64,000 nt of DNA from a virus (IMGVR_UViG_3300021400_000049:10462-74461); one strand, 5' to 3'. Positions 2,743 to 41,640 are shown, counted from the stretch's first letter. Notes: generated from the sequence alone by a model not told the origin. Made by a program: numbers and translations.

Positions 2743-3679
2743 TAATACAGAATACTTAATGGACTCAATAGATATAATCAATCTGTTAAAAGTCGATTTA
2801 GCGCAACATAACATTGATTATCTGAAAGATATAAAAGATGGTCCAAAGAATATACAGATTACTTGTCCTTATCATGCTAATGGTCAAGAGCATAAACCAT
2901 CAGCAGGTATAAGAAAGTCAGATGGAGTATTTCATTGTTTTAGTTGTTGTGAAACTCACACTCTACCCGAAGTAATATCATACTGCTTCGGGTATGATGT
3001 GAGTAGTTATGGTAAAAGATGGTTAGATACTCATATACAAGATAGAGTCTACACAAATGGCATAGCCAGATATAAAGAGAGACAGAAAGAAGTAGTAACA
3101 AATAACTTTGTATCGGAAGAAGAACTTGATAGCTATAGATGGACACATCCATATTGGGCAGAAAGAGGTATAGTAAATGAGAGAATCATTGAATTGTTCG
3201 ATTTGGGATATGATAAGAAAACTCAATGCATCACATTTCCAGTTAGAGATAGACAAGGAAACTGTGAATTTGTTGCAAAGCGTTCGGTCAATACAAAGTT
3301 CTTCCAATACCCACAAGGAGTTTCAAAGCCATTGTATGGACTCTATGAGCTATGCTATTTGGGCTTACAAGATGAAGAAATAATTGTATGTGAGTCAATG
3401 ATAGATTGTATTCTATTATGGCAATCAGACCATTATGCAGTAGCATTGAATGGTCTAGGTAATGAAAGACAATTCAAACAATTAAGAGAATTACCATGTA
3501 AAAATCTGATATTAGCTACAGATAATGATAAAGCTGGCAGAGATGCAAGACAGAGGATAAGAAGTAAAGTAACTAATAAATGGATTTCAGAAATAGCATT
3601 TCCTAAAGGAATAAAAGATATAGGGGAATGTTCTAAAGAGCAGATAGATAATATTTTAGATTGGAGGAAATGGTTATGA
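2732..3679 (+). CDS. dnaG: DNA primase (CHC2 zinc finger + TOPRIM)
   Basis: CPYH...HCFSC zinc finger; TOPRIM CESMID and ATDNDKAG. Confidence 0.9.
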   Translation: MIIDNTEYLMDSIDIINLLKVDLAQHNIDYLKDIKDGPKNIQITCPYHANGQEHKPSAGIRKSDGVFHCFSCCETHTLPEVISYCFGYDVSSYGKRWLDTHIQDRVYTNGIARYKERQKEVVTNNFVSEEELDSYRWTHPYWAERGIVNERIIELFDLGYDKKTQCITFPVRDRQGNCEFVAKRSVNTKFFQYPQGVSKPLYGLYELCYLGLQDEEIIVCESMIDCILLWQSDHYAVALNGLGNERQFKQLRELPCKNLILATDNDKAGRDARQRIRSKVTNKWISEIAFPKGIKDIGECSKEQIDNILDWRKWL

Positions 3680-4311
3680 ATGAAGAACGATTTTTCAGCA
3701 TTATAGTGCCCGCTCATAATGCAGGGAAAACATTGGACAAGTGTCTAACGTCAATCAAGAATCAAAAGTTTACCAATTATGAATTGATAGTGGTGTGTGA
3801 TTCTTGTGATGATAACACGGAAGAAATCGCTAGAAAGTACACAAACAAAGTAGCAAAAGTAAATTATCATAGTGATGGTTCAGCAAGAAATGTCGGATTA
3901 GATATTGCTAAAGGTAGATGGGTGATGTTCATGGATGCAGATGATTGGTATTTACATGAATATTGCTTTAAAATTTTAGCAGACTGCTTGGGTAAACATA
4001 ATGAGGATGTACTTGTCTACTCAATAATATGGAAACATATAGGTTATGTTACTGCGAGAAGTAAGATGGGTACATTATATCCTCATTGTACTAATAAATG
4101 CTGGAAGAGAAGTTTTATAGGTAATACAAGATTTCCAGATAAGTATGTAGCTAATGATGCAGGATTTCACGAATTGATGATGGCAAAGAATCCTGTAATC
4201 TATGAGTATGATACACCGATATATTACTATGATTATCTGAATGGACATAGTAAGTCAGATGAGATAGGTAGAACTGTCGAGAATACAAAAAAGTATTGGA
4301 GTACACATTGA
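3676..4311 (+). CDS. Glycosyltransferase family 2 (GT-A)
   Basis: FSIIVPAHN, ELIVVCDSCDDNT, ARNVGLDIAKG, FMDADD; start follows GGAGG RBS. Confidence 0.85.
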   Translation: MNEERFFSIIVPAHNAGKTLDKCLTSIKNQKFTNYELIVVCDSCDDNTEEIARKYTNKVAKVNYHSDGSARNVGLDIAKGRWVMFMDADDWYLHEYCFKILADCLGKHNEDVLVYSIIWKHIGYVTARSKMGTLYPHCTNKCWKRSFIGNTRFPDKYVANDAGFHELMMAKNPVIYEYDTPIYYYDYLNGHSKSDEIGRTVENTKKYWSTH

Positions 4312-4934
4312 TGAGATTTAGCATAATAATTCCTGCTTACAATTCAGCTAAATATATCGTAAAGGCATTAGAAAGCGTTAAAGCCCAGTCTTTTACAGAT
4401 TATGAGTTGATTGTAGTTTGTGACTCATGTAAGGATAATACTGCTGAGATAGCTATGAGTTACGGTGCGAAAGTTTATATTGGTAATTTTCATAATGATG
4501 GATTATCCAGAAGCAAAGGATTAGATGTAGCTCAAGGTGAGTATGTTTTATTTATGGACGATGATGATTGGTGGCTACATGAGTATGTATTAGAGCAGTT
4601 AAATGAGGAGTTAACAAGATTAAAGGATGCTGATGTACTAGCATTTTCTTTTATATTTAAAGGTATAGGCTACGCATCACCAACGAAAAATCAAGGTAAG
4701 TTATGGGTAGCTGTGTGGAATAAATGTTGGAAACGTGAGTGTATAGGTAGCACAAGATTTCCTAAAATACATTCATGCAGTGATAGATACTTCCATGATG
4801 CTATGATGGAAAAGAAATTGAAAATTTACACATGGGATATGCCTATGTATTATTACAACTATCTTAGAGAAGGTAGTATTTCTCAGAAAGACGGGAGAAA
4901 GGTGAGTGAATTGAAAAAATGTCTAAATATCTAA
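4311..4934 (+). CDS. Glycosyltransferase family 2, paralog of the upstream gene
   Basis: FSIIIPAYN, ELIVVCDSCKDNT, FMDDDD; shares NKCWKR..IG.TRFP with the upstream paralog. Confidence 0.85.
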   Translation: MRFSIIIPAYNSAKYIVKALESVKAQSFTDYELIVVCDSCKDNTAEIAMSYGAKVYIGNFHNDGLSRSKGLDVAQGEYVLFMDDDDWWLHEYVLEQLNEELTRLKDADVLAFSFIFKGIGYASPTKNQGKLWVAVWNKCWKRECIGSTRFPKIHSCSDRYFHDAMMEKKLKIYTWDMPMYYYNYLREGSISQKDGRKVSELKKCLNI

Positions 4935-5581
4935 TTCACGCTTGCGCAAAACGAAAGTGGTATGTAGATGAATTTTTAGTACCATCCATGCTTAAACAAG
5001 GTATAGAACGAGAAAATATATTAGTCTATAATGATAGCTCTAAAGAAGGCTGCCTTAAATCGTTTTTATCATCATATGATAATATTGCATCTGTAGTTGG
5101 TGGTATATGGCATTTACAAGATGATGTAATAATAAGCTCAAACTTTAAGGAGATAACAGAGACATATGATAAAGGTATAGTATGTGGATTCTGTAGTTTT
5201 TATAGCGAAGATGTTCCTTTTGGTATAAGACCTATCAGCGATATTTGGTATTCTTTTCCATGTATACGAATACCAAATATGGTATTTAAGAATTTTGTTA
5301 ATTGGGTAAAATCTCCAGAAATACAGAATAAATATAGAGTATATATTGAACAGAATAAATTTGTGGATATGCTATTTAGAATATTTATAATACAGACTTA
5401 TCCTGATAAGTTGGTACATAATCTGTGCCCTAACATAGTTGATAATGTTGACTATCTGTTAGGTGGCTCAGTGATAAATTATATACGGGATAAAGAGCCT
5501 TTATCATTATATTTTAGTGAGCAAAATTTAATAGAGGAACTTAAACATTCCATAGATAATTCAGTTTACAGACAGAAATAA
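4919..5581 (+). CDS. Putative GT-A fold glycosyltransferase
   Basis: WHLQDDVII DxD-like motif after a beta/alpha N-terminus; translationally coupled to the GT2 pair. Confidence 0.5.
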   Translation: MSKYLIHACAKRKWYVDEFLVPSMLKQGIERENILVYNDSSKEGCLKSFLSSYDNIASVVGGIWHLQDDVIISSNFKEITETYDKGIVCGFCSFYSEDVPFGIRPISDIWYSFPCIRIPNMVFKNFVNWVKSPEIQNKYRVYIEQNKFVDMLFRIFIIQTYPDKLVHNLCPNIVDNVDYLLGGSVINYIRDKEPLSLYFSEQNLIEELKHSIDNSVYRQK

Positions 5582-5593: not shown

Positions 5594-5641
5594 ATGTTTG
5601 TAGTCAACAAAACACGTTTAAAACGAAAGGAAACGAAAGAC

Positions 5642-6355
5642 ATGGCAACAGAAAAGAAACCAGTAGGCGAAGTTGGAATTATTGGACAGATGTATGAAGA
5701 AAGAAAGTCCAAGAAAGTAGGTGTATTAGAGAGTAGAAACGAGAAGTTTAAGACTTTGATGATGCGAGATAAAGACGGAAAGTCTTTTAACGTTCAGTAT
5801 TCTACTTTCAGAAGTAACTGGAGAAAGTATCAGGGCGAAGAAGTTATTCAGACTTCTGAACAGAAGGAAGAAATTAAGCAGGCAGCTAAAGAGGAGCTTA
5901 AATTAGCTAAAGAGGAAATGTCAAAATCTACTGAGACCACAATCAAATTCAGTAGACAGGAGAGAGCTGATGCAATTAAGGCTCTTAGAGTTGTGCTTAA
6001 AGATGCGATTAAAAATGCAAAGTATCCTCTTGAAATTGTAAGTCTTGCAAAGGGTGGTACAGTAGTTAAGCTCAAAGGTAAAAGACGTACAATGTTTGAG
6101 ATTTGGTTACCTTTAAGATATCCGGATGTATACTCATTCAGAATGAGAGATGATATTGATAAGTACATCAATCTTACTGAGTCTAAGGAAATCCTTGAGA
6201 AAGACACAAACAATATTCGTTATAGACCTAAGCGTGAGAGGTTTAATGATGTTCTCAAGGAAGTCTTGAGTGCGGTAGAACAGTTTGTTGATGAGACAGA
6301 CTTTTTACAGAAAAACGAGAAGAACGAAAAGAACGAGAAAAAGGAGAAAAACTAA
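5642..6355 (+). CDS. Hypothetical protein (basic; possible DNA-binding)
   Basis: Long ORF behind its own promoter; no motif confidently recognised. Confidence 0.55.
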   Translation: MATEKKPVGEVGIIGQMYEERKSKKVGVLESRNEKFKTLMMRDKDGKSFNVQYSTFRSNWRKYQGEEVIQTSEQKEEIKQAAKEELKLAKEEMSKSTETTIKFSRQERADAIKALRVVLKDAIKNAKYPLEIVSLAKGGTVVKLKGKRRTMFEIWLPLRYPDVYSFRMRDDIDKYINLTESKEILEKDTNNIRYRPKRERFNDVLKEVLSAVEQFVDETDFLQKNEKNEKNEKKEKN

Positions 6356-7274: not shown

Positions 7275-7564
7275 TTAGTTGTTCATGGTCAGAGCAACTA
7301 ATCTAGTAGTATTATTTTTCATGGTATGATTAACGCTACAAACAACTTATTTATGTCTACTTTGCTCTATTACATATCAGATAGAGCGGTAACCGTAAAC
7401 TACATCTTGTGGTTAAGATGTTTTTGGATACACAAATGCAAAACACATTGGTCTAAATCGTTTTGTTGTTCAAGTACAACTCCTGACATAAATTGATTAG
7501 CTAAGTTGTAGGTGTCGAACTAAACCGCGACATGGTTTATAAGCTAATACTAAAGGAGAATATT

Positions 7565-9115
7565 ATGCCATTATTTGAGATACAAAAGACAAGTACGGTG
7601 TCACAAGATACTGCACTTTTAAAGAAATCAAAGAAAAGGGCAAGCTCAATTACCACTACTAAATCTAGTAGTGGTAATCTTGTCAATAAGATAAATGCCA
7701 TTAAAGCTATGGTAGAAACTCATTTAGGAAAGTTTGCTGATGAGACCATAATAATTCAAGATGAGCAAACACTTTCCTATTATATAGACAGGTGCATAGA
7801 TAATGGTATATGTGCAATAGATACAGAAACTACAGGACTAGACCCGTTACAAGACGAATTAGTTGGAGTAGGTATTTATACACCAGGTGAAAAGACTGCA
7901 TATATACCAGTAGGTCATATGTCATATGTTACAGGTCAAAAAGTAAAGAATCAGCTATCATTAAATGTAGTTGGTAAGTATCTTGCGAAGCTACAGGAAT
8001 TGATAGATGTGGATATTGATATGTTCAATGCCCCATTCGACATAAGATTCATAAAGAATCATACAGGTACAAGACTAAAGTGTACATGGGATGCTTATTT
8101 AGCATCAAGGTGTCTAAATGAGAATGAGCCTAATAAAGGTTTAAAGAAATTACATCAAAAATATATTCTTAGGGGTGAAGAAGATGCCTTTAAGTTTGAC
8201 GAATTGTTTAAGGGAATAAATTTTGCATATATACCTATACAGACAGGCGCATTATATGCAGCCCATGACCCAAAGATAACTTATGAATATGCACAGTATC
8301 AGAGGGATATATTTAGAACCAAAGATAATCTTAAAGATGTTTATTGGGTATTCAAGAATATAGAAATGCCTTGTGTTGATGCAGTAGTCGATATGGAAGA
8401 CACAGGAATAGAATTTGATTTTGAATACAATGATAAGCTCAAAGAGAAATATCACAAGCTACTGGAAGAGAAGGAAACAAATTTCCACAAGCTCTGTGAG
8501 ATGTATAGAGATGAGATTGATAATTATAGCGGTGCAGTAAGATTAGACAATCCTATAAACATACAATCTGTACCTCAATTACAAGCTCTTTTGTATGATA
8601 TAGCAAAGATAGAACCTGTAATAGATAAGAAAACAAAGAAGCCTACAAGAAGTACATCTGAGGACACATTAAAGAGATTAAAGAATCCATTAGCAGATGC
8701 AATACTTGAATATAGGGCATTCTCTACAATAGTCAGTACATTCATAGACAAACTTCCTGAGTGTGTTAATCCAAAAGATGGTAGAATACATTGTAAATTT
8801 AATCAGTATGGTGCTGATACAGGAAGATTTTCTAGTAGTGACCCTAACCTCCAGAACATACCCAGTCATAATAAAGAAATACGAAAGATGTTCAAAGCTA
8901 CAGATGGTGAATACATTGTTAGCACAGATACAGATACTTTGGAAGTAGATAGATTTACAGAAGTTGAAACACCAGAAGGATGGAAGTATTCAGATACTTT
9001 AAAAGCAGGCGACTTGTTATTAGTAACAGATGAAGATGGTGAAGCAGAATATGAGATAGATGCCGTTGATGTGTTAGACGAAAAAGTTGTTATCAGACTA
9101 TACTTACCAAGTTGA
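7565..9115 (+). CDS. polA: DNA polymerase family A, N-terminal part (3'-5' exonuclease, thumb, start of palm) ending in a Hint-like domain
   Basis: Exo motifs AIDTETTGLD, FNAPFD, YAAHD; TGRFSSSDPNLQNIP; start placed after AAGGAG at 7553-7558. Confidence 0.9.
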   Translation: MPLFEIQKTSTVSQDTALLKKSKKRASSITTTKSSSGNLVNKINAIKAMVETHLGKFADETIIIQDEQTLSYYIDRCIDNGICAIDTETTGLDPLQDELVGVGIYTPGEKTAYIPVGHMSYVTGQKVKNQLSLNVVGKYLAKLQELIDVDIDMFNAPFDIRFIKNHTGTRLKCTWDAYLASRCLNENEPNKGLKKLHQKYILRGEEDAFKFDELFKGINFAYIPIQTGALYAAHDPKITYEYAQYQRDIFRTKDNLKDVYWVFKNIEMPCVDAVVDMEDTGIEFDFEYNDKLKEKYHKLLEEKETNFHKLCEMYRDEIDNYSGAVRLDNPINIQSVPQLQALLYDIAKIEPVIDKKTKKPTRSTSEDTLKRLKNPLADAILEYRAFSTIVSTFIDKLPECVNPKDGRIHCKFNQYGADTGRFSSSDPNLQNIPSHNKEIRKMFKATDGEYIVSTDTDTLEVDRFTEVETPEGWKYSDTLKAGDLLLVTDEDGEAEYEIDAVDVLDEKVVIRLYLPS

Positions 9116-9145: not shown

Positions 9146-9865
9146 ATGATTATATATAAAATAACAAACAAAATAAATGGAAAAGTTTATATAGGTGCAA
9201 CAAAGCAATCACTATCCGATAGATGGAAACAACATTTAAAGAAAATGTTATGCTATCCTGACAGAAAACTATATAAAGCTATGACGGAGTTTGGCATAGA
9301 TAATTTTAGTATTGAGGTTATACAAGAAGTGTTTAGTTATGATGAACTGTATAACCTCGAAACTATGTATATAGCAAAATATAATTCTGTTGATGATGGA
9401 TATAATACTCAATCGACTTCTCCTCAGAGAGAGGATTGGGAAGAATACTATGAGCATCTACACTTATCAATGACAGATGAGGTTAAGCAAAGAATTTCCA
9501 ATACTATGAAAAATAAGATTAAAAATGGAGAATTTTTCACACCTGAACATAGAAAGAAATTAAGTGAAGCACAAAGGGGTAGAAAATACTCTCCAGATAG
9601 AGCGGCAAAGTGCGCAACAAGGTGTATAGCTTGTTATTGTATAGTTGATGGTAAACGCTTTGATTTTAAAGATTATAAAGATGCAGGTGTATGGTGGTAT
9701 TATAATTACAAGCCTTTTGGTGAAAAATACTCAGTAAGTATATATCAAAAGAAAATAGTGCAGTCAATAGAATTAGGATATTGCACATATGGTAATAAAG
9801 GACATAAGAATTATAAGTATATAGATAATATTAAATGGTATAGAAAGGCAGGTGATGTCAAATGA
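9146..9865 (+). CDS. GIY-YIG homing endonuclease with NUMOD3-like repeat, between the polA fragments
   Basis: IIYKITNKINGKVYIGAT...R; HRKKLSEAQRGRK. Confidence 0.85.
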   Translation: MIIYKITNKINGKVYIGATKQSLSDRWKQHLKKMLCYPDRKLYKAMTEFGIDNFSIEVIQEVFSYDELYNLETMYIAKYNSVDDGYNTQSTSPQREDWEEYYEHLHLSMTDEVKQRISNTMKNKIKNGEFFTPEHRKKLSEAQRGRKYSPDRAAKCATRCIACYCIVDGKRFDFKDYKDAGVWWYYNYKPFGEKYSVSIYQKKIVQSIELGYCTYGNKGHKNYKYIDNIKWYRKAGDVK

Positions 9866-9922: not shown

Positions 9923-10822
9923 TCACAACAAGAACCGAAAGTTATGACGATGATGTGTAATGACCCATCAATGATTAAAGCGTACAAAGAAGGAAAGGAT
10001 TTATATGCAGAAATTGCGGCGTTATCTTTCAATACAACTTATGAGAATTGCCTCGAGTTTAGACCCGACGGTACTACTAATCCCGAGGGTAAAGAGAGGA
10101 GAAGTCAGGCGAAGTCAATACTTCTTGGTGTTCTGTACGGCAGGGGAGTACCAAGTATTGCTGAACAACTTGGAACAACAACGGCAAAAGCTCAACAAAT
10201 AAAAGATGCAGTAATGAAAGGATTTCCAGCTATTGAAAAGTTTGAGCAAGATTCTATAGCTATGTCAGAGGATGTAGGATATGTAACAACTCTTTGGGGT
10301 AGAAAGAGAAGATTACCTTCAATGATGTTGCCTGACTTTGAATTTGAATATTTAGAGAGTGCTGATAATGCTGACCCATTAGATTTTGGTGATGATATTG
10401 ATAATGAAGTTCCTGATAGTGTTATCAATAAATATATGCACAGACTTACAAAAGCATGGGGCAGAGAAAGGATAAAGATAATATCTCAGGCTAAAGAAGA
10501 AGGAATAAAGATTATAGACCACACAAAAGATAAAGATACAACTAAGGTAGTAAATGCTAGAATACAAGGTAGTGCCGCAGACCAGTCAAAATTAGCCATG
10601 ATAGCTCTTAATAAGGATGCAAGATTAAAAGAGCTAGGATTTAGAATACTTATTCCTGTGCATGATGAGATAATAGCAGAATGTCCTATTAAAAATGCAA
10701 AAGAAGCAGTAGAGCGTTTCAAATATATAATGGAACACGCTAGTGGAGACAAATTCACAATACCTATAAAATGTGATGTAGAGTGCAGTGAAAGATGGTA
10801 TGGGGATACAATTGAAATTTAG
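9923..10822 (+). CDS. polA: DNA polymerase family A, C-terminal part (rest of motif A, motifs B and C), in the +1 frame relative to the 19-codon fragment
   Basis: SQQEPKV upstream of ATG 9944; RSQAKSILLGVLYG; NARIQGSAAD; PVHDEII. Confidence 0.9.
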   Translation, partial: SQQEPKVMTMMCNDPSMIKAYKEGKDLYAEIAALSFNTTYENCLEFRPDGTTNPEGKERRSQAKSILLGVLYGRGVPSIAEQLGTTTAKAQQIKDAVMKGFPAIEKFEQDSIAMSEDVGYVTTLWGRKRRLPSMMLPDFEFEYLESADNADPLDFGDDIDNEVPDSVINKYMHRLTKAWGRERIKIISQAKEEGIKIIDHTKDKDTTKVVNARIQGSAADQSKLAMIALNKDARLKELGFRILIPVHDEIIAECPIKNAKEAVERFKYIMEHASGDKFTIPIKCDVECSERWYGDTIEI

Positions 10823-10859: not shown

Positions 10860-11522
10860 ATGACTAAAATATATTTGGTGACAAATCTAATAAATGGCAA
10901 GCAATATGTTGGTAAAACGAAATATTCATTAGCTCATAGATGGGCACAACATTGTACTAGACCGTACAATACATATTTACATAATGCTATTGTAAAATAT
11001 GGCAAAGAAAATTTTAAGATAGAGGAGTTATGTAGATGCTCAGATGACAAGTGGGAAGATTTGGAGAAATATTATATTCAAAAATATCATACACATTATA
11101 CTTGTGGAGGGTATAACATTTCTTTAGGTGGAGATTCTAATCCTATGGACGACCCTGTAGCTAGAGAACGACATAAGGCAAAAATGTCATCAGTAGAGCA
11201 AAAACTAAAGGATAGTGCGACTATAAGAAAATATAATTCGTCAGAGTTACGCAAACAACATGATAAGAAGACCTCTGAGAGACAGAAAGGCATATATAAT
11301 ACTCAATTTAGAAAATATAATGATTCTAAGAAAGTACGAATAGGTATGATTGAAGAAGGAAAAATTATTAAAGAGTTCGATTGCGCATCTGATGCCTGTA
11401 GATTTTTAGGTAAGCCATCAAAAGAAGCAGGTCATATTTTGAAAGTTTGTGATTGTATAAATAAATTTGGAAGACCAGCAAAGCATTTTGGATATAGCTG
11501 GACAAGATTGGAGAAAGAATGA
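10860..11522 (+). CDS. Free-standing GIY-YIG homing endonuclease (NUMOD1-like C-terminus)
   Basis: KIYLVTNLINGKQYVGKT...HRW; LEKYYIQKY; FDCASDACRFLG. Confidence 0.85.
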   Translation: MTKIYLVTNLINGKQYVGKTKYSLAHRWAQHCTRPYNTYLHNAIVKYGKENFKIEELCRCSDDKWEDLEKYYIQKYHTHYTCGGYNISLGGDSNPMDDPVARERHKAKMSSVEQKLKDSATIRKYNSSELRKQHDKKTSERQKGIYNTQFRKYNDSKKVRIGMIEEGKIIKEFDCASDACRFLGKPSKEAGHILKVCDCINKFGRPAKHFGYSWTRLEKE

Positions 11523-12379
11523 GATTTGCGGTATTCATATTATCTCATGCTAGAGCTAATAGGGTTGAGACCTATAATACATTAAGAGATGCAGGATATA
11601 CAGGTAAAATATATATTACTGTAGATGATGAAGATTCACAATTATCTACATACAAAGATAGATTTGAAAATTCGGATGATGATACTGAGCTTTTAGTGTT
11701 TGGTAAACAACCTATGATTGATATTGCTGATACTGTATATCCTGAAAAGAAAAGAAGTTCAGCATTATACGCTCGTAATTTTATAGAGAATATGGCAGAA
11801 ATATTTAGATTAGATACTTTTGCCATGATGGACGATGATATTACATCATTAAGATTTAGATGGATAGAAGATGGTTCAGTAAAGTCACATATTGTAAATT
11901 CAACTATGGATAAAGTATTTGAATACTACAGTCAGTATATAATTGACGCTGAGATTGCCACAGCTTCATTTCCATACAGTATGTTCTATGTATCAGGAAC
12001 AAGCGGGTTAGATAAGAAAATTACAGAGAGTAGGCATACTTATCAGATACATATAAGGAATACAAATTTTCCTGTTGATTGGGTATCTGTAATAAATCAA
12101 GATACAATCACACAGTTACAGACAATGCAAGTAGGTTATATATGGTGGTCAATACCTTATCTAGTATTTGATGCAGAACCTATGAACAGTAAATCAGGTG
12201 GATTAAAGTCTGTATACGATAGTATAAAAGATTTTGATATGGCATTTCTCGCAGTAATTTCTAATCCTAGTTGTTGTAAAGTAGCTTATTCTAGTGGACC
12301 TAGAAGTACAATGCAGATAAAAGAAGATAAGCACACAAGTTATCCTATGATTGTTAGTGAAAGGTATATGAAACTATGA
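11519..12379 (+). CDS. GREB1/TAGT-like GT-A glycosyltransferase
   Basis: FILSHARA...TL...GY; MMDDDI; EPMNSKSGG. Confidence 0.65.
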   Translation: MRFAVFILSHARANRVETYNTLRDAGYTGKIYITVDDEDSQLSTYKDRFENSDDDTELLVFGKQPMIDIADTVYPEKKRSSALYARNFIENMAEIFRLDTFAMMDDDITSLRFRWIEDGSVKSHIVNSTMDKVFEYYSQYIIDAEIATASFPYSMFYVSGTSGLDKKITESRHTYQIHIRNTNFPVDWVSVINQDTITQLQTMQVGYIWWSIPYLVFDAEPMNSKSGGLKSVYDSIKDFDMAFLAVISNPSCCKVAYSSGPRSTMQIKEDKHTSYPMIVSERYMKL

Positions 12380-13215
12380 TTGTGTATATAAAAACACATG
12401 GCAGACCAGGTAAGCAGTTGACTTACAATACTCTACGAGAAGCTGGCTACACAGGAGATATAGTCTTAGTCATAGATAATGAAGATGAATGTGGTGTAGG
12501 ATATTTAGAGTTCGTGAAACATGATGACAGACTATGGTTGCACATCTTTGATAAACAAAAATTGGTAGATGAGATAGATAGTGGCACAAATATTCCTAAA
12601 AGAGATGTAAATTTATATGCTTGGGTTGCTTGTGAGAGATTTGCAGAACAAGATGGTAATGATTTCTTCATAATGGCAGATGATGATATAACAAGATTTA
12701 GGTATAGGTATCTTGAAGATGGACATTTAAAGTCAATACCTATAACACAGAATCTTGATAGAGTATTTGAACATATTCAGAATTATATGGAATGCTCCAA
12801 TATAGCCGCTGCCAGCACAGGAATACCTCAAATGTACTTCTCTAAAGAGTTAGACGAAAATCTGTGGAAATACAGAGTGGCGTATCAATTCGTATTCAGA
12901 AATCCTAAATTTGATATGAATTGGGTGTCTGAATATGAAGAGGATATAATAACATCCATCAATATGTCAAAAGAAGGAAAGTATGTCACTTGTTTACCTA
13001 TGATTCAGCATGACGCAGTAGCTTTAGGTAAATCAGATGGCGGTATGAAAAGTATGTATGATGAGAATAATAGTCGATTTAGTCTCGCTGAGTATGGCCA
13101 TATATTTAATCCTTCTTGTGAGATTATGAATTTTTATAAAGGTAAGTGGATAACTAATATAAAAAGAGATAACGCATTTCAGAAATTAGTGAGTTCCAGT
13201 CGCAAGAAGATATAA
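12376..13215 (+). CDS. GREB1/TAGT-like GT-A glycosyltransferase (paralog)
   Basis: IKTHGRP...TL...GY; MADDDI; EEDI; KSDGGM. Confidence 0.65.
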   Translation: MIVYIKTHGRPGKQLTYNTLREAGYTGDIVLVIDNEDECGVGYLEFVKHDDRLWLHIFDKQKLVDEIDSGTNIPKRDVNLYAWVACERFAEQDGNDFFIMADDDITRFRYRYLEDGHLKSIPITQNLDRVFEHIQNYMECSNIAAASTGIPQMYFSKELDENLWKYRVAYQFVFRNPKFDMNWVSEYEEDIITSINMSKEGKYVTCLPMIQHDAVALGKSDGGMKSMYDENNSRFSLAEYGHIFNPSCEIMNFYKGKWITNIKRDNAFQKLVSSSRKKI

Positions 13216-13264
13216 AGTGTTATATAATGTTTAAGTAGTTCACACTAAGTTGAAAGGAGATAGT

Positions 13265-13759
13265 ATGAAGCAGTTATTTGAGGATGATAGTGCAAAGAAA
13301 AATCCTATGGGGGATGATACAAAGTATTCAAGAGCAATAAGAGTACCACAGTATGAACCTAAGAATGAGAAGCCTGAGTTGGAGTCAGTTTATGACCTCA
13401 CTAAGTATAGCAAGTTGATTGCTAAAATCAATAAGTCGGGTGTTACGGAAGAAGAAAAGAAGTTTCTCAAATTTGCCGCAACAAGACATATTGTATTTAC
13501 TTATAGTAAGATAGCTGATTATTATGCCAATGCTAGTGCTGAGATGCAGGCACTAATGGAAGAATCAGCACTTGTTATACTTGACATTGACGATGCTATA
13601 GCAAATGGATATGTGGCTCTATCAGAGAAGATGAAACAACTTATTGATGAAGAAAAGGCTAGAGATGCAAAAGCTAGAGAGGCTAGTAATATATTGAAGG
13701 CTCAAAGAGAATTAGCAGAGAAGAAAGCTAAGGAGAAAAAGGATGAGCAGAAGTCTTGA
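13265..13759 (+). CDS. Conserved alpha-helical phage protein accompanying GREB1-like glycosyltransferases
   Basis: IRVPQYEP, AATRHIVFTYSKIADYYA, EESALVILDIDDAIANGY; own promoter and RBS at 13200-13260. Confidence 0.5.
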   Translation: MKQLFEDDSAKKNPMGDDTKYSRAIRVPQYEPKNEKPELESVYDLTKYSKLIAKINKSGVTEEEKKFLKFAATRHIVFTYSKIADYYANASAEMQALMEESALVILDIDDAIANGYVALSEKMKQLIDEEKARDAKAREASNILKAQRELAEKKAKEKKDEQKS

Positions 13760-14609
13760 TGATTTTGCAGTATTAGTCTTAACTCATGGTAGAGCAGAGA
13801 ATGTTCCTACATACGGTACATTAAGAAAGTACGGTTATACAGGCAGAATAATAATGGTAGTTGATGATGAAGATCCTGATTTAGAGAATTACATTTCAGT
13901 GTATGGTAAAGAAAATGTGGAAGTATTCTCTAAAGATGAGGTTGTGCATAAGTTCGACACAATGGATATTCCTAAGCATAGAAAGTGTATAGTGTACGCT
14001 AGAAATGCCAGCTATGATATTGCAGAGAGACTTGGCTTAAAGTATTTTGCTCAGTACGATGATGATTATGTAACAAACCCTTATAGATGGCAAGAAGGAG
14101 ATACATTATATCGAAGTACATTAGCTAATCTTGATGAGGTATTTAAGGCACATATAGATTTTCTTGAAACTAATCCTAATATCTATACTGTAGCGTTTGG
14201 TCAAGCAGGAGATTATATAGGTGGTGTAGGCAGTAATCTTGTTAAGAGAAAGTGGCTAAGAAAAGCCATGAATAGCTTCATTTGTAAGACTGATAGACGA
14301 ATACAGTTTAACGGAACAATAAATGAGGATGTAAATGCCTATGTGCTGAATGGTTCAAGAGGTCAGATATATCTCACATTTGATTTTATGATGATAGACC
14401 AAGCAGAGACACAGACACAAGCAGGTGGTATGGCAGATTTATACTTAGGTGTAGGTACATATCAAAAGTCATTCTATACTGTAATGTGTAGTCCATCATG
14501 TGTGAAAGTAGGTATGATGGGAGATAGACATTATCGTATGCACCATAATATAGAATGGGATAATGCAGTTCCAAAAATAATATCAGATAGATATAAGAAA
14601 ACAAAATAG
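13743..14609 (+). CDS. GREB1/TAGT-like GT-A glycosyltransferase (third paralog)
   Basis: VLTHGRA...TL...GY; QYDDDY; INEDVN; QTQAGGM. Confidence 0.7.
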   Translation: MSRSLDDFAVLVLTHGRAENVPTYGTLRKYGYTGRIIMVVDDEDPDLENYISVYGKENVEVFSKDEVVHKFDTMDIPKHRKCIVYARNASYDIAERLGLKYFAQYDDDYVTNPYRWQEGDTLYRSTLANLDEVFKAHIDFLETNPNIYTVAFGQAGDYIGGVGSNLVKRKWLRKAMNSFICKTDRRIQFNGTINEDVNAYVLNGSRGQIYLTFDFMMIDQAETQTQAGGMADLYLGVGTYQKSFYTVMCSPSCVKVGMMGDRHYRMHHNIEWDNAVPKIISDRYKKTK

Positions 14610-14621
14610 GAGGAAAAGAGA

Positions 14622-14846
14622 TTGAAACTAGAAACAAAGTCAGTGGAGATTGAGAAAGAGAAGGTGCTCACAATATCTGAGTCAGAATTTGTGGATGTTG
14701 TGAAAGAAGTTATTGGTGAGATAGCAGAACATGATATAACTACACTCAATGAACCTATGCTCCTTTTAGCTTTAGGAGTTAGTCGTGCTGAACTAGGCGC
14801 AAAGTTGACAAATAGATTATTTAATCAGGAGGAAGAAAAGAAATGA
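14622..14846 (+). CDS. Hypothetical protein
   Basis: ORF with GGAGG RBS, coupled to dnaN. Confidence 0.5.
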   Translation: MKLETKSVEIEKEKVLTISESEFVDVVKEVIGEIAEHDITTLNEPMLLLALGVSRAELGAKLTNRLFNQEEEKK

Positions 14847-15958
14847 AATTAACAATCAACACCGCTACTTTTCAGAATATGGTAGCTAAGGCAGTAAAGG
14901 GAGCAGGTATGAATAATGACCTGCTAATCACACAGTTAATGTCAATCTCATTAAATAACAACAGGCTCACATTAACAACTACAGATAACAATAACTATCT
15001 GTATGTGAAGCAGGAGAAAGTAGCTGGAGATAATTTCAGTGTAGTAGTAATGGCTGATAAGTTTGCAAAGCTCATTTCAAAGCTCACTTGTCAGGAAGTA
15101 ACTCTTGAAATTCCTACTGCAAAAGAAGGCGAGTTGGATAAGCTCGTAGTAAAGGGAAATGGTAAGTATGTACTTGAATTACCTTACGATGAGAATGGAG
15201 AACTAATCGAGTTTCCTGATCCACTTGCTGAAACAACAAATGATTTTTATAGCTCAGGAGAAATTCAGCTTTCTACAGTAAGACATATTCTTAATACCGC
15301 AAAGGCAGCACTTCTTGTAGGTAAAGAAGATATGTGCTATTCAGATTATTATTGCGGAGATAGAGTTGTTTCAACAGATACTTACAAGATATGTGGTATT
15401 GATGTGAAGATTTTTGATGAGCCTAAGTTAATCTCACCAGAGCTTATGGATTTACTGGATGTTATGTCTACAGAGCATATTGATGTCAGATATAAAGATG
15501 ATGTGGTTATCTTTGAGACACCAGAAGTAGATATATATGGTTTAGTTGATGATGGCATAGAACAGTATCAGATTGATGCGATTTCAGGACTTCTTGATGA
15601 GCAGTTTCCTAGCTCATGTAAGATAGAGAAAGCTCCATTGTTGCAGATGTTAGACCGTCTATCACTCTTTGTAGATGTATTTGATAAGAATAGTGTCTAT
15701 CTCACATTCACAAAAGATGGCTTGATGGTATCATCAAAGCAGGATAGTGGATCAGAGATTATTCCTTACAAAGCTAGTGAGGAGTTCAGAGATTATACTT
15801 GTTGTCTTGATATTGATTTGTTTAAGACTCAGGTTAAAGCATATCAGGATGATGTTATCGAGTTGCTATATGGTAAAGAAAACAGTATTAAGTTCACTTG
15901 TGGTAATACAAAGCAGATAATTGCCCTTGCCGATGATGATAGGACAAGTGCTGAGTAA
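14843..15958 (+). CDS. dnaN: DNA polymerase III beta subunit-like sliding clamp
   Basis: 371 aa three-domain size; N-terminal MKLTI...VAKAV, LTLTTTD, STDTYKI patterns typical of beta clamps. Confidence 0.75.
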   Translation: MKLTINTATFQNMVAKAVKGAGMNNDLLITQLMSISLNNNRLTLTTTDNNNYLYVKQEKVAGDNFSVVVMADKFAKLISKLTCQEVTLEIPTAKEGELDKLVVKGNGKYVLELPYDENGELIEFPDPLAETTNDFYSSGEIQLSTVRHILNTAKAALLVGKEDMCYSDYYCGDRVVSTDTYKICGIDVKIFDEPKLISPELMDLLDVMSTEHIDVRYKDDVVIFETPEVDIYGLVDDGIEQYQIDAISGLLDEQFPSSCKIEKAPLLQMLDRLSLFVDVFDKNSVYLTFTKDGLMVSSKQDSGSEIIPYKASEEFRDYTCCLDIDLFKTQVKAYQDDVIELLYGKENSIKFTCGNTKQIIALADDDRTSAE

Positions 15959-17295: not shown

Positions 17296-17431
17296 TTAAT
17301 GTTATACAATATTTATCTGTAAGAGGTCGAGACTTACATAATCCTATAACTTGTTAAATTCGCTTACGGACAAATGTAGATGCTCGACCCATCTACACCG
17401 TAAGCGTTTTTATATTTTAGGAGTAAATAAT
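17282..17431 (+). promoter_or_regulatory. Promoter plus structured leader/attenuator of the HNH gene
   Basis: TTTACA-17-TACAAT; two hairpins with complementary loops; U-tract before the AGGAG RBS. Confidence 0.6.
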
Positions 17432-17878
17432 ATGATAGAGGAATGGAGAGATATTAAGGGATATGAGGGAATCTATCAAGTCAGTAACTTAGGTAGAGTA
17501 AAGAGCTTAGCTCATACTTATAGTAGAAGAAATGGCATAACTAAGGCTGAGCATATTATTACTACATCAGAAAGAGTTCTATCACCTTTAAATGTTGGTA
17601 GATATTTAAGGATAGGGCTTACTGATGTGAAACATAGAACTGTACAACATTCAATACATAGACTTGTTGCGGAAGCCTTTATACCGAATCCTGACAATCT
17701 TCCTGAAGTTAATCATTTGGATTGTGATGGTCACAATAATATCGTAAGTAACTTGGAGTGGTGTTCACATTATGATAATATTCACTATGCTCCAAGCTCA
17801 ATGCGTCGTGTAATTGGTGTGAAGAAGAATTGGATATATAGAAAAGAAAAGTATGGTAGTACAGGAAAAAGCTATTGA
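17432..17878 (+). CDS. NUMOD4-HNH homing endonuclease
   Basis: EEWRDIKGYEGIYQVSNLGRVKS; HRLVAEAFIPNP...VNHLD...N...NLEW. Confidence 0.9.
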   Translation: MIEEWRDIKGYEGIYQVSNLGRVKSLAHTYSRRNGITKAEHIITTSERVLSPLNVGRYLRIGLTDVKHRTVQHSIHRLVAEAFIPNPDNLPEVNHLDCDGHNNIVSNLEWCSHYDNIHYAPSSMRRVIGVKKNWIYRKEKYGSTGKSY

Positions 17879-24791: not shown

Positions 24792-25478
24792 ATGAGCAGA
24801 GAGTATACGGAAGAGCAGATAGAGTGGATAAAGGGTAACAGAAGCGGTCATTCTTATCAGGAATTAACTGAGCTGTTTAATGAGCGTTTTGGCACAAACA
24901 GAACATTTAATGGTATAAAGACAATGTGTACTCATAGACTTCATGTCTGTGATACACATGAGCCCTATACAAAAGAACAGGATGAATGGTTAATCGAAAA
25001 TGCTTTGAAGTATAACAATTATGCAGAAGTTGCCGAAGAGTTTAATAAGCTCTTCGGCACAAATAAAGTTGATAGAGGTGTTCAGTCTCATTGTGTTAGA
25101 GTATTGAACATAATATCAGGCAGACAGTCAAAAGCTCCTAGTGGTTGGAATAAGCAGCCTATAGGCGCAGAGTTGCTTACTAAAGAAGGTTATACTTTAG
25201 TAAAAATAAATGACACAGGCATTAAGAATAAAGACTGGATAACTAAACAAAGATATATCTACGAACAACACTACGGTAAGATAGGCGACACTGATATAGT
25301 AGTATTCTTAGACGGAGATAAATCAAATTATTCTTTAGATAATCTTGAGGCTATACCTAGAGCTATAAGTTTAAGAATAAACGCTAATAAATGGAATCAT
25401 CCTAATAAAGAGTTCACTTTAGCCGCTATAAGATGGTGTGAGTTGTATTATGTGTTGAAAGCGCAAGGCGCTATTTGA
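24792..25478 (+). CDS. HNH endonuclease with two N-terminal HTH-like repeats
   Basis: Repeats YTEEQ..W / YTKEQDEW; KQRYIYE...VVFLDGDKSN...DNL. Confidence 0.75.
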   Translation: MSREYTEEQIEWIKGNRSGHSYQELTELFNERFGTNRTFNGIKTMCTHRLHVCDTHEPYTKEQDEWLIENALKYNNYAEVAEEFNKLFGTNKVDRGVQSHCVRVLNIISGRQSKAPSGWNKQPIGAELLTKEGYTLVKINDTGIKNKDWITKQRYIYEQHYGKIGDTDIVVFLDGDKSNYSLDNLEAIPRAISLRINANKWNHPNKEFTLAAIRWCELYYVLKAQGAI

Positions 25479-26531: not shown

Positions 26532-26747
26532 ATGAATAAAACTCAGTTAGTAAGAGAACATCTTTTAAAACATGGCAGTATTACTTCTTGGGATGCCATA
26601 AATCTTTATGGCGAAACAAGATTATCTGATGTAATATTAAAACTCAGACAAAAAGGCTGGGACATAAGAACTATTATGGTAGAATTTACAGATAGATATG
26701 GTAATGTTGGTACTTATGCAAATTATGTATATAAAGGAGATAAGTAA
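26532..26747 (+). CDS. Small winged-HTH protein
   Basis: HLLKHGSITSWDAINLYGETRLSDVILKLRQKG. Confidence 0.7.
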   Translation: MNKTQLVREHLLKHGSITSWDAINLYGETRLSDVILKLRQKGWDIRTIMVEFTDRYGNVGTYANYVYKGDK

Positions 26748-27814
26748 TGGAAAAATCATTGGCTATCAAATATAGACCTCACTGTTGGGAGGATGTAATT
26801 GAACAGGATGCAGTAAAGATTATTTTAAAACAACAGTTAAAAAGCGGTAGTGTTCATCAAGCTATGTTATTCTGTGGACCATCTGGTGACGGCAAGACAA
26901 CAACTGCGAGAATACTTGCAAACGAGCTGAACAAAGGTAAAGGTAATGCTATAGAGATGGATGCAGCCAGCCATAATAGTGTAGATGATGTCAGAGAGAT
27001 TATAAAAATGGCAAGCTCAAAGACTATTGATGGCTCAGAATATAAAGTATTTATCATTGATGAGTGCCATTCACTTTCAAATACTGGTTGGCAAGCATTT
27101 CTGAAATGTATAGAAGAACCGCCAGCTAAAGTGGTGTTTATCTTCTGTACAACTGATCCTCAAAAACTTCCTGCTACAATTCTGAGCAGAGTACAGAGAT
27201 TTCAGTTTCAGAAAGTAAGTACAGACGGCATATTTAAGAGATTGGTACATATACTGTCAAAAGAATATCCATCAAAAATATCTGAGAATGATGTGGGTAC
27301 AAAAGTAGACCGAGATGCTCTAATGTTTATAGCTAAGTTAGCAGATGGCGGTATGAGATTAGCTATTCAGTATCTTGAAAAATGCTTGGCATATAGTGAT
27401 GAACTTACAGTAGAAAATGTGGTAAAAGCTCTTAATGTCACAAATTATGATGATTATATAGGCATAACTAATCTTTTATTTGATCCTAGTGACAGAGCTA
27501 GTCTAATTACAAGATTAGATGAAATTTATGCGTCAGGAGTAGATTTTAAGCAGTTTTTAAAGCAGTATGTATCATTTATATTAGATGTAAATAAAGCGTT
27601 GATTTTAGACGACCTTGATGATGCATTTCAGTATATCAATCTGCCAAGAACAAGTGAGATTGAGACGTGGCTAACTACCATTTTAGAACATGGAGATTTA
27701 GAGTTCTTCAACAAACTACTTTCCCATTTAGTAAAACTTGACGGTGATGTGAAATATTCACAGAGCCCTAAAGTCGATATTGAAGCAGGTATATTATTGT
27801 TTGAGGTGAAATGA
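26747..27814 (+). CDS. dnaX: Clamp loader ATPase, Pol III gamma/tau-like
   Basis: LAIKYRP; GPSGDGKT; IIDECH; TILSRV; GGMRLA. Confidence 0.9.
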   Translation: MEKSLAIKYRPHCWEDVIEQDAVKIILKQQLKSGSVHQAMLFCGPSGDGKTTTARILANELNKGKGNAIEMDAASHNSVDDVREIIKMASSKTIDGSEYKVFIIDECHSLSNTGWQAFLKCIEEPPAKVVFIFCTTDPQKLPATILSRVQRFQFQKVSTDGIFKRLVHILSKEYPSKISENDVGTKVDRDALMFIAKLADGGMRLAIQYLEKCLAYSDELTVENVVKALNVTNYDDYIGITNLLFDPSDRASLITRLDEIYASGVDFKQFLKQYVSFILDVNKALILDDLDDAFQYINLPRTSEIETWLTTILEHGDLEFFNKLLSHLVKLDGDVKYSQSPKVDIEAGILLFEVK

Positions 27815-28668
27815 TGATAGGACAACAGAAGTTAGTAGCACAGATAATTGACCTTATTGAGAGAGATAAGTTTCCTCGTTTCTCTATAGTAGTGGGTGAA
27901 AAGGGTATGGGGCATGAAGATGTTGGCAGAGTAGTAGCAGAACAGTTAGAGTGTCCATATATTTTATTGCAAGATGTTAAGGTAGATACCATTAGAAAGA
28001 TGATAATTGACGCTTATAAGTTACATGAAACAATGGTATATATCATTCCTAATGCAGATGATATGTCCATTAACGCTAAGAATGCCCTATTGAAGGTAGT
28101 AGAAGATACTCCTAATAAGGCATACTTTATCATGTGTTTAGAGGATCTATCTAATACACTGGCTACAATTCAGAGTAGAGGCATAGTGTTTAGAATGTGT
28201 CAGCCTACTGTAGACGAGATAAAGGAGTATGCCAGAGAGTTGTATGTTAATAAAAGCGATATAGATGAGGAAGAAATCAAATATGTAGGTGAAATATGTA
28301 CGAGCGAAGGTGATGTTGTTTACATGACTCATCATGGAGCAAAGAACTTTTATAGATATGCTCAGTATGTGGCAGATAATGTAACAAATGTGTCAGGAGC
28401 AGAAGTCTTTAAATTCTCAGATAAGTTGGCGCTTAAAGATGAAGAGGATAAATATGATGTGAGATTATTTCTCAGAGCATTACAGTATGTATTGATGAAT
28501 GAGGCGACAAAGTATTTAGATAAGGAAGCAGAATTTAGAATAAAAGTAAGAGTGCCAGCATTGATAGGTAAGTATATGCAAGATTTAAGAATAAAGGGTA
28601 TAAACAAGACAATGCTTATGGATAATCTATGGATAGAGGTAAGAAAGTTATGGAAATCGCAGACGTAA
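27811..28668 (+). CDS. holB: Clamp loader delta-prime-like subunit
   Basis: Degenerate Walker A GEKGMGH; NALLKVVED; TIQSRG. Confidence 0.7.
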   Translation: MMIGQQKLVAQIIDLIERDKFPRFSIVVGEKGMGHEDVGRVVAEQLECPYILLQDVKVDTIRKMIIDAYKLHETMVYIIPNADDMSINAKNALLKVVEDTPNKAYFIMCLEDLSNTLATIQSRGIVFRMCQPTVDEIKEYARELYVNKSDIDEEEIKYVGEICTSEGDVVYMTHHGAKNFYRYAQYVADNVTNVSGAEVFKFSDKLALKDEEDKYDVRLFLRALQYVLMNEATKYLDKEAEFRIKVRVPALIGKYMQDLRIKGINKTMLMDNLWIEVRKLWKSQT

Positions 28669-40538: not shown

Positions 40539-40651
40539 CCATTCTTTTAGGCCCATCAACTCTTTGCCCATATTCCCATAGAGGCCCATTGTCTATTAGG
40601 CCCATTCCTCTATAGGCCCTTTGCTGACGTAGGCCATTGAAGCCCCTGGCC
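40539..40651. repeat. (AGG)CCCAT repeat array
   Basis: CC(C) units at 40552, 40567, 40575, 40585, 40601, 40617, 40634. Confidence 0.6.
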
Positions 40652-40725
40652 ACACACAGGTGGTGTGGTGGTATGTGAGCTTCGCTCACAGAGGATCTGC
40701 TTGCACACAATGTAATAGAATAAAG

Positions 40726-40814
40726 TGTTATTGTTTACAATTAAATAATAAACAATGTTGTTGTTTACATTTTTTAAAATTGTACTTGTAAACAATAACA
40801 ACTTATGATAATAT
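40726..40814 (+). promoter_or_regulatory. Promoter with a 15-bp perfect inverted repeat of the TGTAAACAA motif
   Basis: TGTTATTGTTTACAA (40726-40740) / TTGTAAACAATAACA (40786-40800); TTGTAA-17-TAATAT with TGn. Confidence 0.65.
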
Positions 40815-40937
40815 GATATTGAGCTTCAATAAAGCGTGAGCTTTGAAGCGTGTTCTATCTGTACTTTAACAAACATAGTTAGCTACTAACTATCATATGG
40901 AAACGTAAACACACTATATCGAAACGAGGTAACGAAA

Positions 40938-41627: not shown

Positions 41628-41640
41628 TAGCTTAAACATT

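Follow-up and report, generated by a model that had tools for sequence, protein, structure and literature searches.

The present study concerns a 64,000-nucleotide stretch of viral DNA (IMGVR_UViG_3300021400_000049:10462-74461), hereafter the window, and in particular a module of three putative TAGT-family glycosyltransferase genes and a small partner gene embedded among its replication genes. The window was taken, as bases 10462-74461, from a viral record of 74,461 bp that is complete (completeness estimated at 100%) and bears direct terminal repeats of 107 bp; coordinates below are those of the window unless stated otherwise. The genome has a G+C content of ~36%, with nearly all genes on the + strand, and, because genes for a CW_7 endolysin, an LLH holin, and RecU were found, it points to a Gram-positive host. 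A megablast search of the locus against GenBank phages gave no match.

TAGT genes and the adaptor gene among them

A sequence-only reading of the window had claimed three TAGT paralogs, sharing (S/T)H(G/A)R...TL...GY.G and DDD motifs, between polA and dnaN. A six-frame search of the whole genome with PF20691 (TAGT; gathering cut-off 27.5 bits) recovered exactly three open reading frames (ORFs) above the cut-off, all on the + strand, namely TAGT1 (11519-12379; 80.8 bits), TAGT2 (12376-13215; 69.0 bits), and TAGT3 (13743-14609; 118.1 bits), with a split polA upstream and a dnaN-like clamp gene downstream, so that both the paralogs and their placement were confirmed. All three ORFs matched phrog_842 (E 6e-58 for TAGT3), the annotation of which carries the name beta-glucosyl-HMC-alpha-glucosyltransferase, and their pairwise identity was 26-35%. 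The motifs proved invariant in an alignment with the homologues of phages c5 and jlb1, the conserved residues being R12 in (S/T)H(G/A)R, T18..L22, Y27-x-G29, and DDD105-107, followed by a later invariant D195 within INEDV in TAGT3, YEEDI in TAGT2, and INQDT in TAGT1. The active-site pattern R...DDD...ED(Y/F), as defined for DNA glycosyltransferases of the glycosyltransferase A (GT-A) fold (bioRxiv 10.1101/2023.12.21.572611), was thus recognized, with ED as the third motif in TAGT2 and TAGT3 and QD replacing it in TAGT1. Characterized PF20691 members act on 5-hydroxymethyluracil (5hmU) or 5-hydroxymethylcytosine (5hmC) in DNA, or on DNA-linked glucose (bioRxiv 10.1101/2023.12.21.572611; PMC13390438). 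As judged by sequence, the three ORFs are bona fide members of this family without its contextual hallmark, a linked TET or thymidylate synthase homologue (ThyS).

TAGT3, the core GT-A glycosyltransferase of the module, was 40-45% identical to the TAGT encoded beside ParB-like genes in viruses of Lactobacillus, E. coli, Nocardia, Vibrio, and Haloarcula, and is the orthologue of this ParB-associated TAGT, which is common to many phages. Its gene lay directly 3' of the partner gene in every relative compared, and in the present genome its start overlaps the end of the partner gene by 17 nt. Likewise, the ATG of TAGT2 overlaps the stop codon of TAGT1 (ATGA). TAGT2 is of the type lying upstream of the partner gene in all relatives of this phage group, with 43-95% identity to the upstream TAGT of five related loci (L007, L008, L009, L013, and L014). 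TAGT1, an accessory paralog, occurred only in L007 (88%), L013 (61%), and G002, and was absent from L008, L009, and L014.

The helical gene that had been noticed among the TAGTs (13265-13759, + strand) is real and conserved. Its start was placed at the ATG at 13265, preceded by AAAGGAG and giving a protein of 164 amino acids (aa), rather than at the TTG at 13250 chosen by the ORF tool (169 aa). AlphaFold2 modelled a helical protein (predicted local distance difference test score, pLDDT, 86) with a poorly ordered N-terminus, a compact four-helix core (residues 44-112, pLDDT above 94), and a long K/E-rich coiled-coil helix (residues 113-168). The protein aligned only to the C-terminal half of c5 gp01 (51% identity) and of jlb1 gp24 (41%), and tblastn matched it to the C-terminal ~110 residues of ParB-like proteins in 28 phage records (E down to 1e-31), in 28/28 of which a TAGT3 orthologue was the next gene. 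A TAGT was also present in 39/39 IMG/VR records of at least 30 kb that bear this protein, and accompanied it in 9/9 metagenomic contexts with readable neighbours. ParB's nucleotide-binding domain (NBD), which lies at the N-terminus (ParB_N, PF02195), was found neither in the protein nor, at E<=10, anywhere in the genome. By its defining domain the protein is therefore not a ParB, and it is better described as a probable ParB-derived adaptor. The sequence-only reading had proposed that it (as a 165-aa protein) might create the acceptor for glycosylation; this suggestion did not hold up, considering its homology to the C-terminal domain of TAGT-associated ParB-like proteins and its predicted architecture of disordered N-terminus, four-helix core, and coiled-coil helix, and the protein is best read as a non-catalytic adaptor.

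The adaptor domain, for which there is no Pfam model, forms a family of 1190 cluster representatives at 50% identity. Among the best 150 of these, most were 230-300 aa long with an N-terminal extension, and many others were truly standalone proteins of 125-170 aa; ParB_N was recognized by Pfam in 20/87 family members scanned. The conserved positions of the domain (Y..P.YE, RH, E..Q...E, and VI.D) were all present in the 13265-13759 protein, and R79, H80, E104, and D112 were its invariant polar residues. Moreover, a natural fusion was identified in the 534-aa protein P0181 (L015:214-1818 and a 16.6-kb JGI contig), in which a TAGT (residues 5-193) is joined to an adaptor domain (residues 398-520). 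The fusion gene is followed by a second TAGT gene and then by the large terminase gene, in the same TAGT-adaptor-TAGT order as in the 74,461-bp phage. At the level of gene architecture, this fusion provides direct evidence that the adaptor and the enzyme would function together.

Structural comparison of the adaptor yielded little. Foldseek found no match in the PDB at E<=0.001, profile searching of PDB sequences picked up nothing beyond the ParB NBD of fused relatives, and a wide structure search with VIA returned only coiled-coil matches (Z <=6.7), the long C-terminal helix dominating that search and the core being barely probed. A weak PADLOC match of the core to a dGTPase (E 0.0015, 15.9 bits) was judged to be noise.

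Sliding clamp and replication operon

Downstream of TAGT3 lies a gene for a beta-type sliding clamp (dnaN-like; 14843-15958, + strand), with a PF00712 N-terminal domain scoring 26.1 bits, which is the proposed docking partner of the adaptor. The 39 adaptor-bearing IMG/VR records comprised 26 with an NBD-less and 13 with a ParB-fused adaptor, and a beta-type clamp (PF00712) was detected in 22/26 of the former vs 0/13 of the latter (Fisher p = 3e-7, with records treated as independent of shared ancestry). Three of the four NBD-less records without a clamp gene were only 20-60% complete. In at least 14/22 records the clamp gene begins within about 0.6 kb downstream of the TAGT gene, as it does in the 74,461-bp phage. 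The present study thus revealed an association not previously described, in that NBD-less adaptors go with a phage-encoded beta clamp and ParB-fused adaptors do not.

The N-termini of the adaptors followed the same division. Nearly all standalone IMG/VR adaptors begin with M-x(0-8)-[LM]F, many of them with Q-x-x-[LM]-F, and the motifs found within the first 12 residues included QLDLF, QLRLF, QFELF, QFSLF, QFNLF, QLNMF, QSELF, and QYELF. An N-terminal Q..[LMI]F was present in 7/26 standalone representatives vs 0/85 fused ones (equivalent stretch), shuffled sequences averaging 0.14 and reaching at most 2. In the clade of the 74,461-bp phage, the N-terminus M[KN]QLF (MKQLF in the phage itself) is kept, and the residues right after it are variable. 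The Q-x-x-[LM]-F forms are akin to QL[SD]LF, the bacterial beta-clamp-binding motif of clamp partners, which stands for example at the N-terminus of Hda. It is conceivable, with a chance approaching but not exceeding an even one, that the adaptor docks on the phage clamp through its N-terminal peptide, and the ParB NBD and this clamp-binding-like peptide appear to be alternative routes by which an adaptor-enzyme pair could reach DNA.

Two further phages extend this comparison. In the phage encoding P0136, an adaptor beginning MKQLDLF, the genes are organized differently, in the order adaptor, TAGT, radical SAM, TAGT, and DnaB, after which come a small ORF and a beta clamp with all three domains. 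The jumbo Vibrio phage pv27 (191 kb; L020:8474-9903) carries a standalone adaptor and a TAGT in a replication module with a different processivity factor, and the N-terminus of its adaptor has no [LM]F motif.

In the 74,461-bp phage the module forms part of a replication operon. The order starts with DnaB helicase, primase, two genes of glycosyltransferase family 2 (GT2a and GT2b), a 220-aa gene, a 253-aa gene, the single-stranded DNA-binding protein (SSB) gene, and the N-terminal part of polA, continues with a GIY-YIG gene, the C-terminal part of polA, a second GIY-YIG gene, TAGT1, TAGT2, the adaptor, TAGT3, and a 74-aa ORF, and ends with the clamp, a Cas4-like nuclease, and RecU, after which come RecA and the DnaX/delta/delta-prime clamp loader (clamp-loader genes at 26747-29567). 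The two polA pieces occupy 7532-9115 and 9944-10822. The 74-aa ORF between TAGT3 and the clamp gene (14622-14846, + strand) had no family match but has a 42%-identical counterpart in the same place in L009. No terminator-like site was found on the + strand in the polA-to-clamp interval, and a promoter scan of the locus did no better than on shuffled sequence. Four free-standing genes of homing-endonuclease type were also observed, two GIY-YIG (9146-9865 and 10860-11522) and two HNH/NUMOD (17351-17878 and 24792-25478), of which one interrupts polA and another (10860-11522) lies directly 5' of TAGT1. Such genes are positioned elsewhere in relatives, and the primase of L014 carries a LAGLIDADG insert.

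Base-priming enzymes and accessory transferases

Considering that known TAGTs act on prepared bases, enzymes able to supply an acceptor were searched for in the complete genome. Eight six-frame searches with hidden Markov models (HMMs), most at E<=1, gave no match to Tet_JBP (PF12851; searched without a positive control), Thymidylat_synt (PF00303), Thy1 (PF02511; ThyX), DNA_methylase (C5), N6_N4_Mtase, 2OG-FeII_Oxy_3, Radical_SAM, or TGT. The earlier statement that no TET/JBP, C5-methylase, thymidylate synthase homologue, or deazaguanine gene occurs in the 64 kb thus holds for the complete genome, and no standard hmC/hmU pathway was found outside the window. Neither TET/JBP nor ThyS was found in the complete genomes of c5 (31.8 kb), jlb1 (38.3 kb), HHTV-2 (52.6 kb), and a 75-kb relative, a ThyA homologue being present only in the 191-kb Vibrio phage pv27. 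Among the 39 IMG/VR adaptor records, TET/JBP, likewise searched for without a positive control, was found in 0/39 (0/23 of the near-complete ones) and ThyS over its cut-off in 0/39. Since all known base-priming enzymes are absent, a DNA target would require an acceptor made by other than the known phage routes.

An explanation by conventional chemistry would be that an unrecognized hydroxylase or hydroxymethylase, either a divergent phage enzyme or one of the host, makes 5hmC, 5hmU, or another hydroxylated base for the TAGTs. Of phage 5mYOX contigs, 5-17% reportedly escape PF12851 (PMC13229309), the genome contains many small ORFs without annotation, and the adaptor-TAGT module of two other lineages has a radical SAM gene within it (L017:3544-4521, with a SPASM domain, and L021:6432-7346), so that oxygen-independent priming could be envisaged. 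We nevertheless regard this explanation as improbable, as none of the eight relevant HMM families matched the complete genome in six frames, genomes as small as 31-38 kb (c5 and jlb1) carry the pair without TET/JBP or ThyS, neither enzyme occurs in any of the 23 near-complete module-bearing records, and the larger uncharacterized proteins offer no candidate. One of these, a 307-aa protein encoded before the window (L004:4717-5640, genome coordinates; phrog_16490), is of low complexity and G/N/Q-rich, with a hydrophobic segment and a Cys-rich C-terminus, and matched only unnamed viral clusters in the ESM Atlas. The second, a 253-aa protein (5594-6355), is K/E-rich, with a sub-threshold HEPN match only and none in the ESM Atlas, and the third, a 220-aa protein (4919-5581), has a predicted GT-A / nucleotidyltransferase fold. 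As for the radical SAM enzymes of L017 and L021, they could be acceptor-making enzymes independent of oxygen or could serve in sugar tailoring; in L019, the module slot held by the radical SAM gene in L017 is taken by a gene with a weak class I methyltransferase match.

In addition to the TAGTs, the genes at 3.7-5.6 kb had been read as further enzymes of a six-enzyme hypermodification pathway. GT2a (3661-4311, + strand; PF00535 91.2 bits, E 9e-26) and GT2b (4296-4934, + strand; 86.9 bits, E 2e-24) far exceed the PF00535 gathering cut-off of 23.3 bits, and GT2b overlaps GT2a and the 220-aa gene at its two ends. The nearest solved relatives of both were GalT1, chondroitin synthase, TarS, and TarP, and GT2a had only remote tblastn matches in cultured phages. 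The 220-aa protein (4919-5581, + strand; hereafter GT-A220), which has invariant R12 and Q67-D68-D69 and belongs to a family of 670 homologues, had no Pfam or PHROG match and no tblastn match in cultured phages. Its AlphaFold2 model (pLDDT 93.8, predicted template modelling score 0.89) is consistent with membership of the GT-A / nucleotidyltransferase fold: the best Foldseek match was mimivirus R655 (E 2.5e-6), followed by cytidylyltransferases and by GT-A enzymes of the GT6, GT31, and GT7 types, and GT-A enzymes and sugar nucleotidyltransferases scored alike (E 2.5e-6 to 2e-4, TM about 0.4-0.58). A divergent TAGT was ruled out for GT-A220 by hhalign against the TAGT alignment (probability 0.2).

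Comparison by tblastn with the five relatives of the phage group (L007, L008, L009, L013, and L014) separated a core from accessory genes. L009 has only a TAGT2-type gene, the adaptor, and TAGT3; L008 and L014 have GT-A220 in addition; and L007 and L013 have TAGT1 as well, GT-A220 being found in all of these except L009. The GT2 pair was missing from all five, including L007, in which TAGT1-3 are 88-96% identical, and constitutes a precise 1.2-kb two-gene insertion between the primase gene and GT-A220, overlapping the adjacent gene on either side, at a point corresponding to L007:4576-4594. The pair is apparently a recent insertion, found only in the 74,461-bp phage among the relatives compared. 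The number of transferase genes therefore climbs as a ladder of 2, 3, 4, and 6 around a constant adaptor+TAGT3 core. This core, usually with one upstream TAGT, is the conserved part of the system, whereas GT-A220 and TAGT1 are accessory. In the 39 IMG/VR records, one TAGT was present in 24, two in 14, and three in 1, and for this reason the 74,461-bp phage is at the rich end of the range in TAGT number. The ladder fits diversifying selection on a glycan. As to the six-enzyme pathway, six genes with nucleotide-sugar-transferase folds are indeed present, two of GT2 type and one of predicted GT-A fold at 3.7-5.6 kb among them, but a single pathway is not what the comparison supports, considering that only the adaptor and TAGT3 are core, that the genes at 3.7-5.6 kb are accessory, and that even the closest relative lacks the GT2 pair.

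This distribution bears on the possibility of a split function, in which the adaptor and TAGT would act on DNA and the GT2 pair, perhaps with GT-A220, would act on a wall teichoic acid or polysaccharide receptor, in the manner of TarS/TarP or Gtr, or on virion proteins. The absence of GT2a and GT2b from every relative, even one with nearly identical TAGTs, is in line with such a division, as are their distance of 6.6 kb from the TAGT block, beyond the polymerase, the identity of their nearest solved relatives (TarS, TarP, GalT1, and polysaccharide synthases), and their PHROG matches to GtrB-like O-antigen-conversion families; the best fold match of GT-A220 is likewise a mimivirus glycosylation enzyme, nearly equalled by cytidylyltransferases. 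GT2a, GT2b, and GT-A220 are, on the other side, short, soluble, and mutually overlapping, and are located in the replication operon between primase and SSB, outside the structural and lysis modules, and known phage DNA-glycan pathways combine successive GT-A enzymes of different families (bioRxiv 10.1101/2023.12.21.572611). A split function is accordingly considered unlikely.

Proposed mechanism and its relation to known systems

The module may represent a replisome-embedded, clamp-tethered, post-replicative glycosylation system, most likely acting on newly made phage DNA, an interpretation that we hold with about even confidence. In this scheme the helical core of the adaptor would hold TAGT3, and its N-terminal MKQLF peptide would dock on the phage's own beta clamp, encoded just downstream. 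TAGT3 would then add the first sugar from a host uridine diphosphate (UDP)-sugar, and the glycan would be lengthened or varied by TAGT2, TAGT1, GT-A220, and the GT2 pair that this phage has newly acquired. Small temperate phages lacking a clamp gene have this adaptor domain fused instead to a ParB NBD, with the pair located beside the terminase gene. In chromosome segregation, the NBD of ParB clamps DNA in a nucleotide-gated manner. The overlapping or tightly spaced genes between polA and dnaN support such a scheme. Furthermore, activation of a phage DNA dioxygenase on double-stranded DNA has been proven for ParB homologues (PMC13229309), and for the extension of the glycan there are analogues in the TAGT of phage T6, which adds a second glucose on glucosyl-5hmC (PMC13390438), and in phage DNA-glycan pathways in which successive GT-A enzymes extend the glycan (bioRxiv 10.1101/2023.12.21.572611).

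Several points weigh against this interpretation. For the clamp, the statistics are uncorrected for ancestry and MKQLF, in which Q adjoins LF, matches the canonical QL[SD]LF only in part, on account of which docking is advanced tentatively; in addition, a scan of the termini of all ORFs in the genome found no other replisome protein with a matching terminal motif. For the acceptor, no enzyme that would make it was found in the genome or in the 23 near-complete relatives, the absence of Tet_JBP carries the limits of its model and of a search lacking a positive control, and no TAGT is known to act on a canonical base. For the adaptor, the ParB-dependent 5mYOX system needs both the NBD and the C-terminal domain (PMC13229309), and the NBD is missing here. 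Finally, the genome itself shows strong avoidance of palindromes. GATC was observed 37 times in the whole genome vs 280 expected, and palindromic 6-mers had a median observed/expected ratio of 0.36, with 57% of them below 0.5, compared with a median of 1.0 and 1.8% below 0.5 for non-palindromic 6-mers. AGTACT, ATCGAT, and GCTAGC did not occur at all. Sites composed of A and T only are also among those avoided (ATTAAT, 5 observed vs 32 expected), and therefore protection is not apparent for any single base. In its evolution the DNA has behaved as though type II restriction enzymes could cut it.

Because the avoidance of palindromes and GATC is so strong, a full sugar-coating of the genome is unlikely, and any mark is probably a sparse or context-specific one, or else something other than DNA is the target. 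The hypermodification envisaged by the earlier reading is hence disfavoured in so far as it implies a bulk-replaced or fully decorated base. Two other features of base composition were noted. CpG stood at 0.49 of expectation over the whole genome, and the longest CC-free stretch of the + strand (window 40650-41695) measured 1,045 bp, the next gap being 323 bp, with CC occurring 1,527 times in 74.5 kb; the longest GG-free gaps fell in the same region. A tie between this stretch and the glycosyltransferases is only a guess.

The same avoidance, which suggests that the DNA is largely unmodified, is a reason to consider a protein target. The TAGTs might act as GREB1 does, a member of the family whose TAGT-type domain glycosylates a protein, O-GlcNAcylating the estrogen receptor ER-alpha (PMC7968844); the substrate might be a clamp-associated replisome protein, a host DNA-bound protein, or the adaptor itself, with the adaptor uniting enzyme and substrate on the clamp. 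Consistent with this are the lack of a hydroxylated-base route in any genome examined, the SPASM-type radical SAM gene between adaptor and TAGT in L017, this class often modifying peptides, and two invariant tyrosines of the adaptor, Y26 and Y35, in its poorly ordered N-terminal segment, although residues 31-40, which include Y35, have a pLDDT near 80 and may merely pack on the helical core. A protein target must, however, be set against the fact that DNA or a DNA-linked sugar is the substrate in three of the four activities characterized for the family, against the derivation of the adaptor from a DNA-clamping ParB protein, and against the spread of the module over viruses that infect bacteria both Gram-positive and Gram-negative, actinobacteria, and haloarchaea, for all of which the target protein would have to be universal or phage-encoded. 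On balance, we judge it to be a fairly unlikely explanation.

Returning to clamp-tethered glycosylation of DNA, its boldest version is that TAGT3 on the clamp-docked adaptor glycosylates an acceptor for which there is no known preparation route (be it a canonical base, an exocyclic amine, or some other position of ordinary DNA), and does so sparsely and context-specifically on fresh phage DNA, the five extra transferases building a variable glycan. We consider this a minority possibility and put it forward speculatively. If true, it would mean a new DNA-modification chemistry and a second, clamp-based delivery of DNA-modifying enzymes, evolutionarily interchangeable with the ParB NBD, and the 1,045-bp CC-free cassette could be a region kept free of the mark.

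Among known systems, the closest one studied is 5mYOX176/ParB176 (O'Toole et al., PNAS 2026, PMC13229309), in which a DNA-modifying phage enzyme likewise has a neighbouring, dedicated, ParB-derived partner. No DNA-binding domain is obvious in ParB176, whose activation of its enzyme is specific to double-stranded DNA (PMC13229309). The present module differs in having a glycosyltransferase and no dioxygenase, in an adaptor that lacks the NBD essential in ParB176, and in the N-terminal [LM]F motif of that adaptor and its position beside a beta clamp gene, so that the resemblance would be one of logic only. The closest unstudied relative is the orphan ParB-like+TAGT cassette of temperate phages, found in c5, jlb1, E. 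coli Rac-type prophages, and halovirus HHTV-2. It has an orthologous adaptor domain (38-51% identity) and TAGT3 (40-45%), with the same adjacency and overlap, and TET and ThyS are likewise absent. In that cassette, however, ParB_N is fused to the adaptor, and the packaging operon begins with the pair, upstream of the terminase gene, in small phages without a clamp gene, whereas here the NBD is missing and the module, standing in a replisome operon beside dnaN, has gained five further transferase-fold genes.

The TAGTs also resemble the GT-A DNA glycosyltransferases associated with TET/5mYOX or ThyS in phages and the trypanosome JGT, with which they share PF20691 and the R...DDD...ED motifs (bioRxiv 10.1101/2023.12.21.572611; PMC8256090), and the presence of several successive glycosyltransferases in one locus recalls subclass I of Pyle et al., which places di- or oligosaccharides on 5hmC (bioRxiv 10.1101/2023.12.21.572611). 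Unlike the present system, the TET/ThyS-associated enzymes need a C5-methylase and TET, or a hydroxymethylase, neither of which was found here or in 39/39 related records. About 65% (~65%) of glycosyltransferase-bearing phage contigs lack a TET/ThyS neighbour, a fact left unexplained by Pyle et al. (bioRxiv 10.1101/2023.12.21.572611). The beta-glucosyl-HMC-alpha-glucosyltransferase of T6/T2 (PMC13390438), a TAGT using a DNA-borne sugar as acceptor, may serve as a model for TAGT1 and TAGT2, although T6 makes 5hmC before replication and adds the first sugar by an alpha-glucosyltransferase, and nothing comparable was found here. Literature searches found no paper characterizing a ParB+TAGT pair without TET. 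To these earlier studies the present one adds tallies over the whole genome and over 39 records, a natural fusion, the ladder of core and accessory genes, a predicted fold for the 220-aa protein, the argument from palindromes, and the link to the clamp.

The adaptor+TAGT pair, counted in 1190 clusters (50% identity) and in no fewer than 576 IMG/VR loci, is among the commonest unexplained phage modules, and ranges over viruses whose hosts include Gram-positive and Gram-negative bacteria as well as actinobacteria and haloarchaea. The 74,461-bp phage, through its six transferase-fold genes, shows the module in unusually rich form, and adds a mechanistic handle through its adaptor architectures. 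If the sugars are placed on DNA, DNA glycosylation independent of base priming would be a new chemistry, with a bearing on phage anti-restriction and on tools for DNA labelling.

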